Positions 4,063 to 64,000 of a stretch of 64,000 nt of DNA are shown here, in pieces. Position numbers and translations under genes: made by a program. How positions within the stretch are numbered: the stretch's first letter is position 1; the number at the start of each line of letters is the position of its first letter. Origin of the DNA: Candidatus Enterousia intestinigallinarum (GTDB taxonomy: Bacteria; Pseudomonadota; Alphaproteobacteria; Rs-D84); contig DVJI01000009.1 of the NCBI GenBank assembly GCA_018716885.1, positions 7,448-71,447 on the forward strand, read 5' to 3'. The notes under the pieces were generated by a model. It was not told the origin of the DNA and made no database searches. It was given only the letters and a program-made list of their open reading frames with translations.

Positions 4063-5361
4063 ATGGCAGAAGTACAAGATTTTGTGTCCGGTATTCAAAA
4101 ATTGCAGGATTTTGAAGATAACGTTCAGGCCCAGGTAAAATATATGTCTGATATGAATAACTGGGTTATGGTGCACGCAACCAAGTATATGCCACGACGC
4201 TTATCGGACGGCAGTTTGGCAATTCCAACGACTGCGATGGCGACAAATTACGATGTTCCGCGCGCCACGGTGCATACTACGCTGAATCATATTGTTGATG
4301 CAAATTCCGGTGGCAATTGGAACGATATGTCTGTTGTAATATTGGCGCCGTTTAATGATGTTGTTGGCAAAAATGAAAATCCGATAGAGGTTAGTTTGCT
4401 GGATACTTATTTCGCGCCGGATGTAAAAACAGGATTGGTTTTGCCGCCGTCGGCGCATATTGTGCGTGCCGGTGATGTGCCAGATGGAAAATTGTTTGAT
4501 GTTCAAAAAAATGAAACCGTTTATAAAATAGACGGTTTTACGGATTCTGAAAAACAGCAAATTATTGCACGTATGGGGTATATGGCTCGTGACAGATATA
4601 TGAAATTGGAACGCGGTGACATAGAAGATTGGGAAGTTAAACAGGCGCTGATGTTTGCAGGGCCGACAGCACAGAAACTGTATGACGGCGCACGGGACAA
4701 GTCGGCGTTTCTGCGCGGGATGTTTATTGATGAACAAAATGCGATATTGGCAAATACCGTACGTGATATGGCGGTTGACCAGACAATACGGGATATGGGC
4801 TATCGCAGAATAACATCCAGAAGTGATGCTGGGGATGTCGCGCAACAGGTTGCAAAAACTGCACTGGCAAACAAAATGTCCGGTAATGCAAGTAACAAGG
4901 GGCATTTTAATTCTGTACTGGCAAAACTGGAATGGACGTATGCCGATATAACATCTTTTTTCAAAGATAATTTGTTTAACCAATCGTCCGATCTTGACAA
5001 GTTATACAACTATATCAGTTCTGAATTAAATAAGCGTAAACCGTCGGTGCAGGCAACCGATTTCGTCAAAGATATAACGGGTGTCGCGCCGTTAGATTTT
5101 CATAAATATTTTAATGAAACCTTTGATTTTTGGGCACAGAATAATAAATTGGATGCGAAAAGTATCACCGAATACAACAAAAATGTATCTGTTACAGTTG
5201 ATAACTGGATAAAGAAATTTAGTAACGAATATATGCAGTGGCGTAATAAACTGCAATCAATGTCGGGGTATAATCAGTTTGTTACGCGACTGCGTGGGTT
5301 GATGGTCGCAAAAAATGCAGAAATGGCAAAACATATGCTAAATCGTGCAATGGGGGATTAA
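4063..5361 (+). CDS. hypothetical protein (432 aa, no signal peptide, no recognised motif)
   Basis: long ORF with RBS-like aggga upstream; lies just past the att-like repeat. Confidence 0.55.
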   Translation: MAEVQDFVSGIQKLQDFEDNVQAQVKYMSDMNNWVMVHATKYMPRRLSDGSLAIPTTAMATNYDVPRATVHTTLNHIVDANSGGNWNDMSVVILAPFNDVVGKNENPIEVSLLDTYFAPDVKTGLVLPPSAHIVRAGDVPDGKLFDVQKNETVYKIDGFTDSEKQQIIARMGYMARDRYMKLERGDIEDWEVKQALMFAGPTAQKLYDGARDKSAFLRGMFIDEQNAILANTVRDMAVDQTIRDMGYRRITSRSDAGDVAQQVAKTALANKMSGNASNKGHFNSVLAKLEWTYADITSFFKDNLFNQSSDLDKLYNYISSELNKRKPSVQATDFVKDITGVAPLDFHKYFNETFDFWAQNNKLDAKSITEYNKNVSVTVDNWIKKFSNEYMQWRNKLQSMSGYNQFVTRLRGLMVAKNAEMAKHMLNRAMGD

Positions 5362-56963: not shown

Positions 56964-56992
56964 AAAAACGCCCCAAATGGGGCGTTTTTATT
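56964..56992 (-). terminator. intrinsic terminator for the autotransporter gene
   Basis: hairpin aacgccccaaatggggcgtt with a flanking T-run. Confidence 0.6.
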
Positions 56993-59900
56993 TAGAAGTC
57001 GTATCTGAACTTCAACATACCGGTCTGTGAAGTGTAATCTTCGTGCAGATCCAAATCATAGTTCAACGATACTGTCAGACCACGCCATTCGGCAGTCAGG
57101 CCGATGCCAAATTCGCCGCCAAAGCGTGACAGACGATCGGCGTCGATGACGTATGATACGCTGCCCGGGGCGGTTATTGTCGCAACCGCTGCATCAGACA
57201 AGAAATCATATGTCGCCGCCGCACGCAGTTCCGGACGGAATTTCAATTCCATATCCGATTCGATTTCGAACGCGTAACGGATACCAGCAACACCGGTCAG
57301 ATAATCCATATCTGCGCCGTCAACGTGACCCAAAGCGACGTCATACGCGTCCTGGCTGATGTGCAGGTAACGGGCGCCGATTTCCGGGGTCAGACCAGAT
57401 GCGAAATCATAACCGGTCATAACCTGGCCACCGAACGAATCGACATCGTATTCGGATTCAAACTGAACACCGAACGGATTTGATGTTTCCGTATAGTTGC
57501 CCATTGTATAGTTCAACGCGGCATTGACATACCAGTTGTTCGGTTTGTATTGGCCGTACAGGAACAAGCTGTTCGATTCGATTTTCGTATCGCGAGAATC
57601 AGAATCAACGTCTGTATCGTTGTACGCATAACCGATACCGATTGTGTTTTTACCGTCAATCAATGCGTCTGCACCGACGGAAATACCGGTCGTGTCGCCC
57701 TTGAACTGGCCATTTAATTTAGAATGGTTATACAGACCCTGGGCCCAGATGCCATAATCTGCATTTGCCAAATCACCACCGCTGCGTCCAACTGTGCCGC
57801 CAGTCATACGGCCCGCCGCCAGTGACAGAACCTGGTTCTGGACGGATGACGAAATGGAATGTGCAACCGGTTTGTTTTCTGGATTCAGTTTAGCCGTTTC
57901 GTGTTCGACATAATCAACATTGCCTGCCGCCAGTTCAGTTTGGGCGCGCAATGAAATTGCAGTCAGAACATCGTCATCTGTATTGGCCAACACTGCGATT
58001 GTGGCTGCGCCCTGGTTGGACAGGCCGGTGTCTGCCGCGATATCTTCAACCGCCTTGATAGCGATTTCAATACCGTCCGCGCCATTGTTTATGACGTCGT
58101 ACGCCAGGCCAGCATCAATGGTGATGTCTTCGTGCGCAATGCCGCCGAATATGTCGTATGTGCCGACACTGCCGATTGTCAGTTGCAGTTTGCCGTTTTC
58201 ACCGGTTGTAATGCTGTCAGCCAACAATTTGCCATAGTTGTCGGAACTCAACATAGATGCGTTCAATGTACCGTCGATGTCGATGGATGCCTGTTCAACG
58301 GTTGTTGTGCCGATATCCAATGTTGCACCATCCGCAATGGTCAGTGTACCGTCACCGGTAATACCACCACCCAGCGTAGTTGTGCCGGATGCGACCGTCA
58401 TTGTGCCGATATTATGAATATCGTTTGCAACACCATCCGCCATATTGCCACTGAACACGTTTTCACCGTTCAGGGTCATAGCAACGGTGTTATATATTGC
58501 ACCACCGTTCACACCAGCTGTATTGTCGGTAAATGTTGCACCGTCAATCGTCAACGATGAATTTTCTGCCGATGCGCCGATACGTGTGGAAATTGCACCG
58601 CCGTATGTGCCGGATGAATTCTGGCTGAACACAGAATCACGAACTGTGGTGTTGGATTGGTCATACAAGAATATTGCGCCACCACCATTATTTGCATAAT
58701 AGGCGGGTTGACCTTCTTCAACATCCTCGATTTTTACCGTTCCAGTTGTTTTGTTCCCGATAAATTCAGAATTAGTAATCGTCATTGTCGCATCGGAAAC
58801 AATGGCGCCACCTTCGGCATCGACCGAGTTCGATTTAAATATTGATTCATCAATGTTTATCGTCGCGGTTGACCCATCGGCCTGAGATATCGCACCACCA
58901 GCAACAGCCGCCGTATTAGAACTGAATATTGAATTATTTATATTCAATTCGCCTGCGGCATTTGTTCCAACTGCAATGGCACCACCTATGCCAGCGGCGG
59001 TATCTGTTGCTTTGTTGCCAGAAAATGTGAAATTATTTAGTGCCAGATTTGTGTTCATTGAATTATAGAATATGGCACCACCCTGGGTTGCAGTATTATT
59101 TACAAATATAAAGTCACTGCCCAGATTCATATTATTGCTGCCCAGATATAATGCACCACCAGCTTTTGTACTGGAATTGGCAATGAACTGTGCGTAATCA
59201 GCGATTGTCAGATGTGAATCTGCATATGATGCTTTTATTGCACCGCCACCTGTTAGGGCTGCTTTGTTACCCTGGAACAAGGCGTCTTTGCCGATTGTCA
59301 AATTACCATTATTACCCAGGGATATTGCACCAGATTGTAAACCGCGTGTTCCGTGTGTGTTATCAACAAACTTTACATTGTCGCCGATTGTGGTTGTGGC
59401 ACCGGTGCCCATAAACAATGTGCCGTCGCCGGTGTTTCCAGAAAACGTAACATTGTCACCAATGTTTAACGTACCGGAATTGTATATTGCCCCACCGTCA
59501 CCGGTATCGGTTGAATTGCCACTGAATACGGTATTGTCTGCAACGGTCAGGGTGCCGCTGTTATATATTGCGCCACCTTGGCTGGCTGCATTTGTTGCGG
59601 TGTTATTTTTAAATGTTCCAGCAACGGACATTTCGCCAGCGTTATAAATTGCGCCGCCGTGACCACGTGTAGCAGTTGTGCTGTTGCCGTCAAATGTGCC
59701 ATCGACATTCATTGTTCCCAGATTGTAAATTGCACCACCTGTTTTGGCAGAATTTCCCGTAAACGTTGAACCAGATGCAATATTTACGGTGTTATAGAAA
59801 TCTGTTTTATTTTCAGCTTTGTCACTATTCAGGTTGGCAATGGCACCACCACGGTTTGCAGCCGTATTGCCGGTAAAATCAGTACGTCCCAGTGTCAGTT

Positions 59901-60456
59901 CAGTGCCACTTGTTGCGCCATTGGATTTGTCTGTCCAGATTGCGATTGCGCCACCGTCCGCTTCTGTGGAATTGGATTCAAATTTCGTGTTGTCACCGAT
60001 TGTGACCGTGCCAGCGGATTCAATACCCAGTGCACCACCCAGCCATACCGATGTATTGCCAGAAAATGTTGTCCCGTTTCCAAGTACAATATTTCTGTTT
60101 GATTCGGCATCTTCTGGGATTTTTACGTACAGACCACCAGACATCTTGTCAGAATGGTTATTTGTAAATGTCCAGCCATCACCCGCGACAAATCCATTTA
60201 ACGCCTTCATCGCACCGCCAGAATTTACGGATGAATTCTTATTAAATGTTACATTGTTGACCCCCGACGTTGTCAGTGAATCACCATATGTAATTGTCAA
60301 TCCCGCAGCATTCTGATTAGCATCGTCATTATTTGTTTGATTTTCTATTACTTGCCCTTCGGTTATATCAACTGCTGCAAACGCCGGCATAACGGCCAAC
60401 GCGGGCAGTACAGAGCAAATCTTTAGCAAATCGGCTAAATGTTTGTATCTGGACAT
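56992..60456 (-). CDS. Pmp-like (polymorphic membrane protein repeat) autotransporter adhesin (1154 aa)
   Basis: signal peptide; more than 15 reiterations of FxGN...GGAI(Y/A) (e.g. FTGNSAKTGGAIYNLG, FSGNSTDTGDGGAIYNSG); C-terminal beta-barrel region ending ...LKFRYDF. Confidence 0.8.
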   Translation of the reverse strand: MSRYKHLADLLKICSVLPALAVMPAFAAVDITEGQVIENQTNNDDANQNAAGLTITYGDSLTTSGVNNVTFNKNSSVNSGGAMKALNGFVAGDGWTFTNNHSDKMSGGLYVKIPEDAESNRNIVLGNGTTFSGNTSVWLGGALGIESAGTVTIGDNTKFESNSTEADGGAIAIWTDKSNGATSGTELTLGRTDFTGNTAANRGGAIANLNSDKAENKTDFYNTVNIASGSTFTGNSAKTGGAIYNLGTMNVDGTFDGNSTTATRGHGGAIYNAGEMSVAGTFKNNTATNAASQGGAIYNSGTLTVADNTVFSGNSTDTGDGGAIYNSGTLNIGDNVTFSGNTGDGTLFMGTGATTTIGDNVKFVDNTHGTRGLQSGAISLGNNGNLTIGKDALFQGNKAALTGGGAIKASYADSHLTIADYAQFIANSSTKAGGALYLGSNNMNLGSDFIFVNNTATQGGAIFYNSMNTNLALNNFTFSGNKATDTAAGIGGAIAVGTNAAGELNINNSIFSSNTAAVAGGAISQADGSTATINIDESIFKSNSVDAEGGAIVSDATMTITNSEFIGNKTTGTVKIEDVEEGQPAYYANNGGGAIFLYDQSNTTVRDSVFSQNSSGTYGGAISTRIGASAENSSLTIDGATFTDNTAGVNGGAIYNTVAMTLNGENVFSGNMADGVANDIHNIGTMTVASGTTTLGGGITGDGTLTIADGATLDIGTTTVEQASIDIDGTLNASMLSSDNYGKLLADSITTGENGKLQLTIGSVGTYDIFGGIAHEDITIDAGLAYDVINNGADGIEIAIKAVEDIAADTGLSNQGAATIAVLANTDDDVLTAISLRAQTELAAGNVDYVEHETAKLNPENKPVAHSISSSVQNQVLSLAAGRMTGGTVGRSGGDLANADYGIWAQGLYNHSKLNGQFKGDTTGISVGADALIDGKNTIGIGYAYNDTDVDSDSRDTKIESNSLFLYGQYKPNNWYVNAALNYTMGNYTETSNPFGVQFESEYDVDSFGGQVMTGYDFASGLTPEIGARYLHISQDAYDVALGHVDGADMDYLTGVAGIRYAFEIESDMELKFRPELRAAATYDFLSDAAVATITAPGSVSYVIDADRLSRFGGEFGIGLTAEWRGLTVSLNYDLDLHEDYTSQTGMLKFRYDF

Positions 60457-60850: not shown

Positions 60851-60879
60851 TTGCAAAGCCGCACAAAGCAATATATAAT
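60851..60879 (+). promoter_or_regulatory. sigma70 promoter TTGCAA-N17-TATAAT for tRNA-Gln
   Basis: near-consensus hexamers with 17-nt spacing, 12 nt upstream of the tRNA 5' end. Confidence 0.5.
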
Positions 60880-60890
60880 GTGGCGCACAT

Positions 60891-60964
60891 TGGGGCATAG
60901 TTTAACGGTAGAACTCCGGACTCTGACTCCGTCAGTGTTGGTTCGAATCCAGCTGCCCCAACCA
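60891..60964 (+). tRNA. tRNA-Gln (anticodon CUG)
   Basis: U1:A72 acceptor TGGGGCA/TGCCCCA typical of tRNA-Gln, anticodon loop CUCUGAC, T-loop GGTTCGAAT, encoded CCA. Confidence 0.8.
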
Positions 60965-61784
60965 AGATTGACAACCGTTCAGTTCCATCAGGATGTTGAA
61001 CGGTTTTCTTATTGAATATACTAATTTTTTATTTTTCAATTCGCAGTTCGAAAGCAGCAGGTTCAAAAGTGCACGTTTTTGTTCTACTTTCGAACTTTTG
61101 AACAGTTCCGACGCGTGTGACGCCACAGATAATAACGATTCAACCGTTGTTATAAAGTCGTCATCTGCCTTGGAATGTGCTTCTAAACGCACGCCTACAT
61201 CATACAATTCTTTCTCTATATCATTCTTTTTATCTGCGTATTCTTCTTGTGTAATACTGCCGGTCAGTAAAAAATCTAACAGGCGACTTCTTTTGGACTT
61301 TAGGGCATCTTGTTTTTTACGCAGATTGTCTATCTCTGCCAGCGCATAGGCGTTTTCCGCCTGTGATATATTGGTCAGACACTGTACCACTTCCTGCATA
61401 ATATCGCGTGGAAAAGAGAGTTTATTCAAAATTTCATCCTGAATCTGCTGCAACAAATCGTTTTCATTAATCGCTGGTTGTGTACAATTACCCTTAAAAT
61501 GTGAACAAGATAGATATGTATAGGTCTTGCCGCTGGGCTTTGTCTTTGTGTCGCTGGTAATCCGCAACAATTGCAATTTTTTCTCGTTGTGCTTTAACAA
61601 AGTTCAGCATTTCAACGAACTTTTTACGGTCGCCCTTTGTTGAACTCTCGGTAATTTGAAAGGTTTTAAGCAACGTTAACCCATTGCGCTGGATATATTT
61701 GTTCAGATTATCCAGTTGGGCATCAATAGACATACCATTTTCTTGCTCACGCGATGAAACACGAGCAAGTATTACTGCTTTCAT
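60932..61784 (-). pseudogene. large serine recombinase (integrase), frameshifted and internally truncated
   Basis: N-terminal resolvase catalytic domain MKAVILARVSSREQ...SIDAQ (61784-61494, frame a) and C-terminal zinc-ribbon/coiled-coil part YTYLSCSHFKGNC... (61600-60932, frame b); total span about 285 aa against about 450-550 for intact enzymes; the 3' end overlaps tRNA-Gln by 33 nt. Confidence 0.55.
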
Positions 61785-61809
61785 GTTATTCACCGAACAA
61801 AATATTGTT

Positions 61810-62553
61810 TTAACAGAGTCCAAAAGCGTTTAATAATAGCTTAATTGTTGGAATTTGATTTATATTGGCAAGCAAAACCTCACGTCCAACTTTAGTATTT
61901 AAAAATCGTTTAAAAACAATTTCATTTTTTTGTCTGTTTATATCGTTAATTTTAAATTCTATTGATTTGATGGTTTGCTTATAATTGGTTTCTTCTCCGG
62001 TTAATTCTTGCTTGGCATTGATATAACGTGCAATTTTAGTGTCGCAAGCATCTATGAATTTTTTATCGTCTTCTGTTAGCGTGACAGCAGATATTTCTGC
62101 ATCTAACATTTCTTTCATTTTTTTTGTCGTTTTTCCGCGCAAAATTTTCTCAGAGACGCCAAGAAGCATTAAAATTAATCCCTCTATAGAATTTGGCGAA
62201 GAAACAATTAAGATGGGGTTTTTATTGTTAATATTTGTATTTTGTAAATCTGTATACGGAATGTCTTTTAATTTTCCGTCGGTTAAATGCCATCTTTTTT
62301 CTAATGCCGCTAAAACATCTTCACTTATTCGCAGTTCTTTAACAAATTGAAAGTCTTCGTCAAAAAACGCAAATACAACCTGACCATAATCAGAGCACTT
62401 AAAAGCGGTATTTAACACGTTATCAGCGTCCTTGCCATAACAAGGTTGTAAATTTAACCTAAAATCGCTAAATTGCCCGATATGTTCTAGAAAATATTTT
62501 TCTCTATATCCCTCATGAACTACCAGTATAGATTTGCGTTTTTTCTTTACCAT
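61810..62553 (-). CDS. Toprim-like (RloB/DUF4276/AbiLii-like) partner protein
   Basis: 247 aa; N-terminal ...KSILVVHEGYREKYFLEHI (EGxxE motif of OLD/RloB-type Toprim); ATG at 62553 with a GGAGG RBS inside the 3' end of the upstream ATPase gene. Confidence 0.5.
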   Translation of the reverse strand: MVKKKRKSILVVHEGYREKYFLEHIGQFSDFRLNLQPCYGKDADNVLNTAFKCSDYGQVVFAFFDEDFQFVKELRISEDVLAALEKRWHLTDGKLKDIPYTDLQNTNINNKNPILIVSSPNSIEGLILMLLGVSEKILRGKTTKKMKEMLDAEISAVTLTEDDKKFIDACDTKIARYINAKQELTGEETNYKQTIKSIEFKINDINRQKNEIVFKRFLNTKVGREVLLANINQIPTIKLLLNAFGLC

Positions 62554-62555
62554 TA

Positions 62556-63746
62556 TCAAGCCTCCTTTATCTTTGGGCGGCCATCATATTCTCCCGCTAG
62601 ATATTTTATGAAATAATTTTCATCGTTTCTAACTCCTTGAATGTCATCTAATCTCGTAAGCTCTGTTTCGCTTTTTGAGTTTTTTTCCGCTATAAATATC
62701 TGTGTCTTCGTTAAATTTTGTAGAAACCATGGGTTGTGCGTGGTAAACAAAATCTGTGAATTATTCGGATTTTTTTCTGGGTCTAAAAATCTATTGATAA
62801 TTCTGCTTGTTATATCAGGATGAAGACTTTGTTCAAGCTCATCAGCTATTAACAACCCGCCGTCTCTAAAGATTTTATATAGGTGTACGAACAAATCAAT
62901 ATAAGACAAGGTGCCACTAGATTCTTGAAGTAGTAACAAAGGATGAACCTCTCCATCAATAGTATGTTTGGTCACTATTGCAGAATATTCTTCTTCACCA
63001 TTTACATCAGAATTTATTTTTTGTAATTTTCCAAACCCTAATTCAGAAATACCAGTATCTATGTTTTTTAGTTCTTCCATTAATTCTTCAAATAACAACT
63101 TATCTTTTTCTAATTCTTTTGATATTTCGCTAAGTCTACGCAATGGATTATGTTGGCCAATAACGACTTCTGGGCGAACATTAGTTAAAAGTTTTTTTAC
63201 TGTTCCTAATTCACCTTTGCCAAAATAATTTAGTTCCAATAATAATGACAACAAAGACATGTCATCGCGTAAGCGCTCTAAATCTTGTGTATTGACAGAG
63301 AGCGTGTTTTGTATGCGTTTGCCTGATTCTCGTTTAAAAATCGTATTATATCGCTTTGTGTTTTCTTTTAGTTCTCCTAACCATTCTTTTTGAACTTCTC
63401 CCTTAAAAAGGCCAATTTCATATTTATATTGTTTTTGGTTGTCTATAAATTCTGTAGAAAATTCTGTAGGCGCATTTTCACAACAAAAATGTGTATCTAC
63501 ATTACCTTCTCCTCTTAAAGAAGGAACAGAATAAGAACGACAAATATATCGCAAAAAAAACACGATAGCCTTTAGGATATTGCTTTTTCCACTAGCGTTT
63601 GGCCCGACTATACATGCAATATTATTTATAGCCTTGCCTCCAACCTCAGAATAAGCATTTTTTCTTTGGCTTTCAGATATTTCAAAGTTGACGACAATTT
63701 CTTTACCAATAGACCTATAATTTGTTATTTTAAAGTTCAAAAACAT
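62556..63746 (-). CDS. AAA_21/ABC-type ATPase (AbiLi/AriA/OLD-N-terminal-like)
   Basis: FKITNYRSIGKE...GPNASGKSNILKAI (Walker A), LLIADELEQSLHPD (Walker B/D-loop), LFTTHNP (H-loop); ATG at 63746 (a longer ORF runs to 63791). Confidence 0.7.
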   Translation of the reverse strand: MFLNFKITNYRSIGKEIVVNFEISESQRKNAYSEVGGKAINNIACIVGPNASGKSNILKAIVFFLRYICRSYSVPSLRGEGNVDTHFCCENAPTEFSTEFIDNQKQYKYEIGLFKGEVQKEWLGELKENTKRYNTIFKRESGKRIQNTLSVNTQDLERLRDDMSLLSLLLELNYFGKGELGTVKKLLTNVRPEVVIGQHNPLRRLSEISKELEKDKLLFEELMEELKNIDTGISELGFGKLQKINSDVNGEEEYSAIVTKHTIDGEVHPLLLLQESSGTLSYIDLFVHLYKIFRDGGLLIADELEQSLHPDITSRIINRFLDPEKNPNNSQILFTTHNPWFLQNLTKTQIFIAEKNSKSETELTRLDDIQGVRNDENYFIKYLAGEYDGRPKIKEA

Positions 63747-64000
63747 GGTTTTGCTCCATTTTTGACGATTTTCTGTTAAATTTTGCCTCAAAATATTATA
63801 AAAGTCAATAAAAAACGAACCTTATGAAAAGGTTCGCTAAACTTATTTTAATTTATAACACTTTTGCTGTAGATAATACTTTTGTATGTATATTTCAAGG
63901 GCATAAGACCTATTTTTATGACATTTTCATGACACTTATTGCAAAAAACTTTTACCTCATTTGACAACCTTCTAAAGCAATTTCTATTAATAAATCGCTT

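Follow-up and report, generated by a model that had tools for sequence, protein, structure and literature searches.

A 7,877-bp island at the CCA end of tRNA-Gln in Candidatus Enterousia intestinigallinarum and a clade of large serine recombinases whose genes end within tRNA genes

The window analyzed here is a 64,000-nucleotide (nt) stretch of Candidatus Enterousia intestinigallinarum (GenBank assembly GCA_018716885.1, contig DVJI01000009.1, positions 7,448 to 71,447). Its last 3 kb (60959-64000) are the right-hand part of a 7,877-bp integrative element, which its own large serine recombinase (LSR) probably inserted at the 3' CCA end of tRNA-Gln(CTG). The attachment site of the element (attP) would lie within the recombinase open reading frame (ORF), whose Trp-Leu codons TGG TTG, antisense to CAACCA, would be the core of strand exchange. 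Integration would have severed the ORF from the 36-47 codons that naturally close it and that now lie at the island's far end, so that it reads through eight antisense-tRNA codons to a chance TGA. A later 653-bp deletion at a 3-bp microhomology removed codons 76-293, shifted the frame and killed the enzyme. What is left would be a resident defence island, movable only with a related recombinase acting in trans. We assign this explanation as a whole a probability of about 85%.

ARAGORN places tRNA-Gln(CTG), with CCA encoded, at 60891-60964 on the plus strand, and Rfam RF00005 matches it with 62.9 bits in contig L001, which is identical to the window. The minus-strand ORF 60932-61600 stops at a TGA (60934-60932) 33 nt within the tRNA gene. 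It overlaps a second minus-strand ORF, 61494-61823, in a different frame. The second ORF matches the Pfam family Resolvase (PF00239, profile positions 1-74 of 145, E 4e-10) and retains the catalytic Ser10. ORF 60932-61600 matches Zn_ribbon_recom weakly (PF13408, positions 18-57 of 58, E 0.014, below the cut-off) and over its second half only. The G+C fraction is 0.461 at window positions 1-60890 and 0.337 at 60967-64000; for the complete island it is 0.330, compared with 0.467 in the flanks. The host is a gut alphaproteobacterium of ~46% G+C and the element has ~33%.

The island was delimited with two further contigs. L001 (European Nucleotide Archive ERZ5324126, 384 kb) was reached through an identity look-up of the AbiLi-like protein encoded at 62556-63746. 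It equals the window with 0 mismatches over 11,445 nt and runs past position 64000, which corresponds to L001 9747. In L001 the AT-rich segment stops ~4.8 kb past the window end, beside the start of a gene for a 777-residue autotransporter. The far boundary lies at the position equivalent to ~68,836-68,843, and the island extends ~4.84 kb beyond the window. L007 was reached through a look-up of the 1,154-residue autotransporter that adjoins tRNA-Gln. This contig carries the empty site, with only a terminator hairpin and tRNA-Gln between the two autotransporter genes. Once L001 4912-12788 is taken out in silico, what is left agrees with L007 over 13,314 nt with no mismatch, and core to core the island measures 7,877 bp. 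The empty site was found in L007 alone among 23 contigs examined. Because the flanks are identical with and without the island, its gain or precise loss was very recent.

The original prediction, made from the sequence alone, had proposed an integrative element at tRNA-Gln, with a recombinase ORF stopping 33 nt into the tRNA on the opposite strand, AT-rich DNA downstream (now measured as 0.337 against 0.461) and a second boundary beyond 64000. These points are borne out by the agreement of the ORF list with ARAGORN, by the G+C values, by the far boundary in L001 and by the isogenic empty site in L007, the kind of site that it had suggested looking for in related genomes.

Alignment of the empty site, the far end and the tRNA end defines an 8-bp common core, CAACCAAG (CTTGGTTG on the minus strand), located at 60959-60966 at the tRNA-proximal junction. 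The core takes in the final six tRNA bases and the two bases beyond them (CAACCA[AG]). The minimal core CAACCA, at 60959-60964, is the Trp-Leu (TGG TTG) codon pair of the recombinase. With the core in square brackets, the alignment with L007 gives attB, the attachment site of the chromosome, as CGCGGGTTGAATT[CTTGGTTG]GGGCAGCTGGATTCG, the far junction as CGCGGGTTGAATT[CTTGGTTG]ACGATAGTAAACG and the tRNA junction as GAACGGTTGTCAAT[CTTGGTTG]GGGCAGCTGG. The far junction is ordered host terminator, CTTGGTTG, ACGATAGTAAACGAATTACGAAC, and the tRNA junction reads ...GTCAATCTTGGTTG followed by GGGCAGC. The reconstructed attP includes GAACGGTTGTCAATCTTGGTTGACGATAGTAAACGAATTACGAAC, and attB includes GGGTTGAATTCTTGGTTGGGGCAGCTGGATTCGAACC. 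On the element side, the predicted half-site (P arm, ...GAACGGTTGTCAATCT) occupies 60965-60990 within the recombinase coding sequence and is conserved beside the core in 11 related elements; its extent of ~25 bp was taken from the sizes of LSR attachment sites (PMC3783163). On the host side, the tRNA gene at 60891-60964 (+), whose acceptor stem and T arm would form the B' arm of attB, has the same sequence in L007. Since attP and attB have the same core, the sequence of the tRNA stays as it was, and judging from the alignment at most the last six nt of tRNA-Gln can be derived from the element.

The end of the recombinase ORF belongs to the host. Beyond the core, towards the tRNA, all DNA comes from the host, so the last eight codons and the stop (27 nt) are host-encoded. 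This tail, GQLDSNQH plus TGA (60932-60958, minus strand), is identical in the empty site and lies antisense to the acceptor stem, T arm and variable region of the tRNA. An alignment of 12 homologues of the C-terminal fragment shows an invariant Trp followed by tails such as WLGQLDSNQH, WSGRKDSNLR and WQSQRESNP. The "DSN" of the tail is GAT TCG AAC, the antisense of the tRNA T-loop. With attP inside the recombinase ORF, the ORF crosses the junction.

The same layout recurs across a clade of recombinases. One genome per species was scanned and 62 related loci were obtained, in gut Alphaproteobacteria (Ca. Enterousia and relatives, 54-96% identity), Myxococcota, Vampirovibrio/Melainabacteria, Cyanobacteria, Peribacteria, Actinomycetota and others. 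At 44/62 loci an antisense tRNA lies at the end of the recombinase gene, and CCA is encoded in 42 of the 44. A TGG (Trp) codon falls in frame exactly on the tRNA CCA at 40/62 loci, which argues that the overlap with the tRNA is not due to chance. The target tRNAs are Gln (two anticodons), Pro, Glu, Asn, Val and His; with Leu from a phage database there are at least seven tRNA species. The tRNA-encoded tails are 2-104 residues long, their length being set by the tRNA. Because of this range, and because some end after two residues, the tails look like read-through and not like a domain. A profile of the C-terminal region matched 219 cluster representatives (50% identity) at E <= 1e-30, and 3,518 at E <= 1e-10, among 1.84 billion proteins. 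The set of 219 spans Alphaproteobacteria, Myxococcota, Melainabacteria, Cyanobacteria, Actinomycetota, candidate phyla radiation (CPR) bacteria and others. In a further 146 representatives of 50%-identity clusters, tRNA-antisense-like tails were found in at least 85. The clade is marked by a specific C-terminal motif, SSKVEQKRxLLNLLLSNC...KPF...W.

Relatives of the recombinase also occur in L081 (MT836653.1) and L082 (MT837677.1), faecal scaffolds of 6-9 kb that GenBank names 'Bacteriophage sp.', where they end in tRNA-Glu(ttc) and tRNA-Leu, respectively. The scaffolds were rejected as free phage genomes, as they are integrated forms beside these tRNA genes. L081 passes through its tRNA in a different reading frame and has no Trp on the CCA. 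A probe for far ends in the tRNA-Pro clade had no match within 10 kb.

Eleven related elements of 4.7-9.5 kb, with different host flanks, were delimited at both ends. Their ends share only TGGTTG, and the P' arm is conserved. At the far end, differing host terminator hairpins end in TGGTTG and are followed by the consensus ACGATAG(T/C)(A/T)AACGAATT(T/A)CGAAC. The tRNA-side consensus is ...GAACGG(T/C)(T/C)GT(C/A)AA(T/G/C)CT, then TGGTTG and GGGC. From the far end inward, the first 44 nt are conserved at ten other loci, and four further far junctions from metagenomes (L076-L079) also open with TGGTTG and the P' arm. Since the minimal common core is TGGTTG, the crossover would lie within CAACCA of the tRNA. 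The crossover dinucleotide may be the final TG of this core. If so, ATTTCGAAC in the P' arm occupies half-site positions 16-24, and GATTCGAAC in the T arm of the tRNA occupies positions 11-19. For the LI integrase, the motif of the zinc-ribbon domain sits at positions that differ by 5 bp in attP compared with attB (Rutherford et al. 2013, PMC3783163). The positions of ATTTCGAAC and GATTCGAAC match both the positions and the 5-bp shift of that motif. This reading of the sequences agrees well with the mechanism of serine integrases and suggests that the T-loop is what the enzyme reads.

The clade-wide junctions also bear on the natural end of the protein. When the element ends are joined as attP, the recombinase frame stays open for 36-47 more codons in 10/10 sequence variants (for example WL-TIVNELRTVYYDDIINLAPE...), and the other two frames mostly close early. 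At the composition of the element, a run of 36 stop-free codons has a probability of 0.046. The ratio of nonsynonymous to synonymous polymorphism (pN/pS) over codons 10-21 is 0.43 in the recombinase frame versus 1.21 and 0.82 in the other frames. In L080, a relative that is not integrated, the tail beyond the Trp is 42 residues long; this soil contig carries an SSB gene but lacks a tRNA. The AlphaFold model of the L080 protein has a predicted local distance difference test score (pLDDT) of 89 overall and of 54-70 in the tail, which is helical. The natural gene probably ends ~40 codons past the crossover, and integration would replace that end.

Whether the replaced end has a function divides two readings. 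An extension with a function would give a long protein from the circle and a short, junk-tailed one from the integrated element. The two would differ in activity or directionality and would sense the integration state, as proposed for IntP/IntX of Mx8 (PMC6070905). That precedent favours such a switch, as do the frame that is open for 36-47 codons in all reconstructed attP forms, its lower pN/pS (0.43 against 0.8-1.2) and the predicted helix in the 42-residue tail of L080. Conversely, tails in the attP state span 7-47 residues, and a conserved "RT" is in some of them followed by a stop after 2-3 codons. This RT is better read as a DNA motif, since GAAC is retained whether the encoded residue is Arg, Gly or Lys; "FRT" after the Trp was for that reason rejected as a protein motif. 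AlphaFold confidence of only 54-70 does not settle the structure of the tail, and the pN/pS values come from few, non-independent sequences. In addition, the authors who described an analogous overlap in Dehalococcoides judged it unlikely to be functional (PMC3146451). We consider a functional switch unlikely. A similar doubt attaches to the broader proposal that these proteins form an apparently undescribed serine-integrase clade dedicated to tRNA CCA ends, with attP ~40 codons before the gene end and a swap of C-termini that switches the direction or activity of recombination; taken in full, it is likewise unlikely.

One candidate for an attP-state protein, P0011, was rejected, as the contig that encodes it (L075) is what remains of a chromosomal copy, with the P'-arm-like sequence present twice. 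Copies of the core plus P'-arm-like sequence, at 2778-2828 and 4805-4834, flank PHP and NUDIX genes there, beside a 134-residue recombinase remnant.

Insertion by the LSR itself is what we infer from the sequences of the elements and their junctions. Several points weigh against it. By hand inspection the inner half-sites (P arm, B arm) have little obvious dyad symmetry, and only the outer motif of P' and B' is convincing. Searches of metagenome contigs of the Joint Genome Institute (JGI) and of IMG/VR with the reconstructed attP, as an exact or a degenerate pattern, gave 0 matches. A shorter attP pattern gave 0 viral and 4 metagenome matches, all of them integrated far junctions, and no excised form. 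No recombination directionality factor was identified. As to a route of transfer, the island has no capsid or conjugation genes. Catalysis by the LSR and the position of the crossover are deduced from sequence.

A rival reading is another route of insertion, such as a tyrosine integrase since lost, homologous recombination or transposition, with a coincidental overlap of recombinase and tRNA. In its favour, the insertion is assigned to the LSR from sequence, and the copy in the window is dead. Against such a coincidence stands the in-frame overlap in 40/62 relatives, in several phyla and at no fewer than seven tRNA species. The LSR is the only recombinase found across the 11 delimited elements. 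Among the ORFs of the island, Pfam, PHROGs and NCBIfam yielded no tyrosine recombinase, and no second ORF has a resolvase domain. The precise boundaries and short core are, moreover, typical of serine integrases. Another route is very improbable.

In the layout usual for tyrosine integrases, the element would bring its own tRNA 3' half (>=33 nt) and so make the gene whole again, the recombinase and the tRNA would both end in element DNA, and the displaced original half would lie at the other boundary. This is the usual signature of tRNA islands (PMC4383910), and the ORF does stop 33 nt inside the tRNA. The original prediction had reasoned in this way that the element reconstitutes the tRNA 3' end. 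The junctions contradict it: the far boundary has only CTTGGTTG and no more tRNA sequence, the empty site identifies the DNA on the tRNA side beyond the core, all 27 nt of the tail, as host DNA, and the 11 related elements share just 6 bp. A tyrosine-type insertion thus has next to no probability. Past 64000, where a direct repeat of the tRNA 3' segment was to be expected on the earlier reasoning, the extended contig has no long repeat at the far boundary and only the 8-bp core, which was recognized by eye and by comparison with the empty site. Few identical bases are expected with a serine integrase, so the absence of a long repeat, which is a criterion for tyrosine integrases, does not refute LSR-mediated integration.

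The history of the recombinase gene was reconstructed with an intact allele on contig L003. It encodes 501 amino acids with Resolvase (E 7.5e-16), Recombinase (PF07508, E 1e-9) and Zn_ribbon_recom (E 1e-8) domains and matches the PHROG integrase phrog_95 (E 7e-67). L003 carries the same AbiLi/AbiLii pair as the window, then the intact recombinase gene, likewise terminating in tRNA-Gln. Aligned to L003 DNA, the window copy has one 653-bp gap (alignment columns 1060-1712) with a 3-bp ATT microhomology at its edges; the junction is at 61561/61562. The deletion takes approximately codons 76-293. Gone with them are what remained of the catalytic domain, helix E, the Recombinase domain and the zinc ribbon's first CxxC. 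The deleted residues include Arg79 and Arg82, which do not vary in the alignment of homologues, and PF07508 is absent from the window copy because it falls within the gap. The 5' fragment (MKAVILARVSSREQ...KIAIVAD, 61562-61784, minus strand) belongs to Resolvase, and the region upstream of the deletion has one mismatch to L003. The 3' fragment (60932-61561, minus strand), the part shared with the 12 homologues, is ~96% identical to L003 in nucleotides and encodes half a zinc ribbon, a coiled coil, the motif SSKVEQKRALLNLLLSNC...KPF...W and the host tail. In an AlphaFold model of a relative, long helices (341-445) follow the zinc ribbon.

Together the two window ORFs have ~284 homologous codons, in keeping with the claim, made from the letters alone, of a decayed LSR of about 285 codons that lacks its middle; Pfam and the L003 alignment agree on this. 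The gene is also split across two frames as claimed. Two events, a frameshift and a separate deletion, had been supposed; since 653 mod 3 = 2, the single deletion accounts for both the change of frame and the missing middle. By its sequence, the window recombinase is a dead pseudogene of the LSR family that cannot act alone. The identical deletion junction is present in L001/L006, L002 and L008, and because L002 and L008 come from other samples it is not an assembly error. That the split into two frames arose during assembly or sequencing, with a whole gene in the organism, is scarcely credible, even though the source is a metagenome assembly and contigs L009-L012 break within the 3' part of the recombinase gene, suggesting strain mixtures: 653 bp and not one base are absent, four contigs of differing sample origin have the identical junction, and the intact version sits on separate contigs (L003 and L013).

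Divergence from L003 is uneven. It is ~0.1% upstream of the deletion (61562-62620, one base) and ~4% downstream (60965-61561). This suggests mosaicism, or recombination among element variants, inside the recombinase gene.

The claim that the island is immobilised holds in part. The recombinase cannot act alone, as just described, while the attachment junctions are intact, an island-free strain exists and mobilisation in trans is possible. Contig L013, from a related species, carries an element with an intact recombinase that is collinear with the window island at 93-97% identity. Two metagenome-assembled genomes (MAGs) each carry two clade recombinases. In CAMWON01 (L014 and L032), tRNA-Gln is the site of one and tRNA-Glu that of the other. 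In CALXXV01, L031 sits at tRNA-Gln, and L029 has no detectable tRNA, its contig stopping 124 nt past the recombinase match. With two clade members in a genome, mobilisation of defective copies in trans is conceivable. The comparison of L001 with L007 dates the insertion or precise excision as extremely recent although the integrase is already deleted.

Insertion also changed the 3' flank of the tRNA gene. The host terminator hairpin, AACCCGC-TGTA-GCGGGTT, adjoins tRNA-Gln only in the empty site L007, and integration moved it 7.9 kb away. A hairpin followed by UUUUCUUAUU lies at 60973-61007 (+), within the 3' coding region of the recombinase, and is a candidate terminator supplied by the element. 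It begins 9 nt past the CCA, sits in the coding sequence for ...KPFNILMELNG... and folds with -18.8 kcal/mol (z = -3.75; 0/200 shuffles were equally stable). It is plausible that this hairpin and its U-tract substitute for the displaced host terminator, and they probably take over its role.

The cargo next to the recombinase gene is a pair of intact, adjacent and overlapping minus-strand genes. The gene at 62556-63746 encodes an AbiLi-like AAA_21 ATPase (PADLOC PDLC02335, E 4.1e-71; Pfam AAA_21, E 3.6e-29). The gene at 61810-62559 is AbiLii-like by a weak match (PADLOC PDLC02337, E 1.2e-6), with no Pfam or NCBIfam family. The two are always paired in L001, L013 and L023, and an identical AbiLi protein is encoded on seven contigs from different samples. 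From these matches we take the pair to be a putative phage-defence system. In the other elements the same slot beside the recombinase is occupied by different genes. L016 has an AAA_15/AAA_21 ATPase of 442 residues with a 174-residue partner, and L014, L015 and L017 have a minus-strand gene for a protein of 1,216-1,259 residues with no Pfam match. At the far end, L018, L020 and L023 carry an Mrr_cat nuclease-like gene (286 residues). The genes in these variable positions may be further defence systems. The elements look like small integrative carriers of defence genes.

Most backbone genes received no function from Pfam, PHROGs or NCBIfam. A 171-residue protein encoded at L001 7640-8155 matches rolling-circle/HUH Rep proteins weakly (PF23343, E 9e-4; phrog_3584) and has an HxH recognized by eye. 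This Rep-like protein is conserved in 7/11 of the related elements, and a role in replication or mobilisation is possible. The remainder of the island within the window, 63747-64000, is intergenic DNA and, from ~63952, the 3' end of a gene for 145 amino acids, as seen in the match to L001.

In its domain order (Resolvase, Recombinase, zinc ribbon with coiled coil), short core and 5-bp shift between attP and attB motifs, the clade resembles the phage serine integrases A118/LI, phiC31, Bxb1 and TP901-1. Distant similarity was found to the A118 integrase (4kis, E 5e-5) and to the TP901-1 catalytic domain. Canonical phage serine integrases have attP outside the int gene and use attB sites mostly in protein-coding genes or intergenic DNA. 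Unlike them, the clade has its own C-terminal motif. The NCBIfam model for CcrB scored 75 bits, far below its cut-off of 900, and XisF was likewise far below cut-off.

The closest parallel in layout is found in Dehalococcoides. There the serine recombinase DsiB belongs to ssrA islands that target the T-loop's middle in transfer-messenger RNA (tmRNA), with a 20-bp direct repeat and a six-gene module including a second, small serine recombinase, DsiA (McMurdie et al. 2011, PMC3146451). As in the window island, the LSR gene stands at the island edge and its ORF crosses the left junction (attL) into the antisense of an RNA gene. Those islands are also small and non-conjugative with variable cargo (PMC3146451). 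Compared by description of DsiB, they differ in that the window island targets a tRNA CCA end, has a core of 6-8 bp and lacks a second recombinase. An attP within the integrase gene and a new 3' end on integration are known from Mx8 IntP/IntX and the SSV-type integrases (PMC6070905; PMC4383910). Unlike the enzymes described here, these are tyrosine recombinases, with different chemistry and longer segments of identity, and the SSV gene is split in two halves. Like the window island, Mx8 has a tRNA gene as its target.

Tyrosine islands of the Islander/TIGER type share with the window island the insertion on the 3' side of a tRNA, the intact tRNA, the integrase gene beside it and AT-rich cargo with defence genes. 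Here, in contrast, there is no tyrosine integrase and no displaced tRNA fragment, and only 6-8 bp are duplicated. The cargo resembles the AbiL system as a two-gene unit in which an AAA_21 ATPase precedes a small partner, and differs in the weak match of the AbiLii-like protein. According to the Islander paper only tyrosine integrases were known to target tRNA genes (2014, PMC4383910), a statement with which a serine-integrase clade that targets tRNA CCA ends from an attP in its own gene would contrast. In the literature searched there was no description of tRNA-specific serine integrases or of the layout of this clade, and no later work at odds with the Islander statement, though an earlier description may exist. 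The window copy is an ordinary outcome, a recent AbiL island with a deleted integrase; the pattern of the clade is more interesting, and new as far as established.

The layout accounts for odd recombinase gene calls that terminate within tRNA genes, and it offers a rule by which the boundaries of such islands can be located. Searches for tRNA fragments miss them, since the duplication is only 6 bp. It also brings to light small carriers of defence genes, 5-10 kb in size, in gut Alphaproteobacteria about which little is known. The natural targets at tRNA ends (Gln, Pro, Glu, Asn, Val, His and Leu) could serve genome engineering as landing sites. Should the exchange of C-termini on integration alter activity, serine integrases would have a new and very simple way of controlling directionality.

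Upstream of the island, host DNA at 60851-60879 (+) contains a predicted sigma-70-like promoter (TTGCAA-17-TATAAT, 10/12 matches in a consensus scan), 12 nt upstream of tRNA-Gln. The integration site is bracketed by the two large autotransporter genes (window 56992-60456 and L001 2453-4786), both with faint repeats of the Chlamydia-PMP type. Downstream of the gene for the 1,154-residue autotransporter are two paralogous genes of the choloylglycine-hydrolase family, which fits a gut bacterium.

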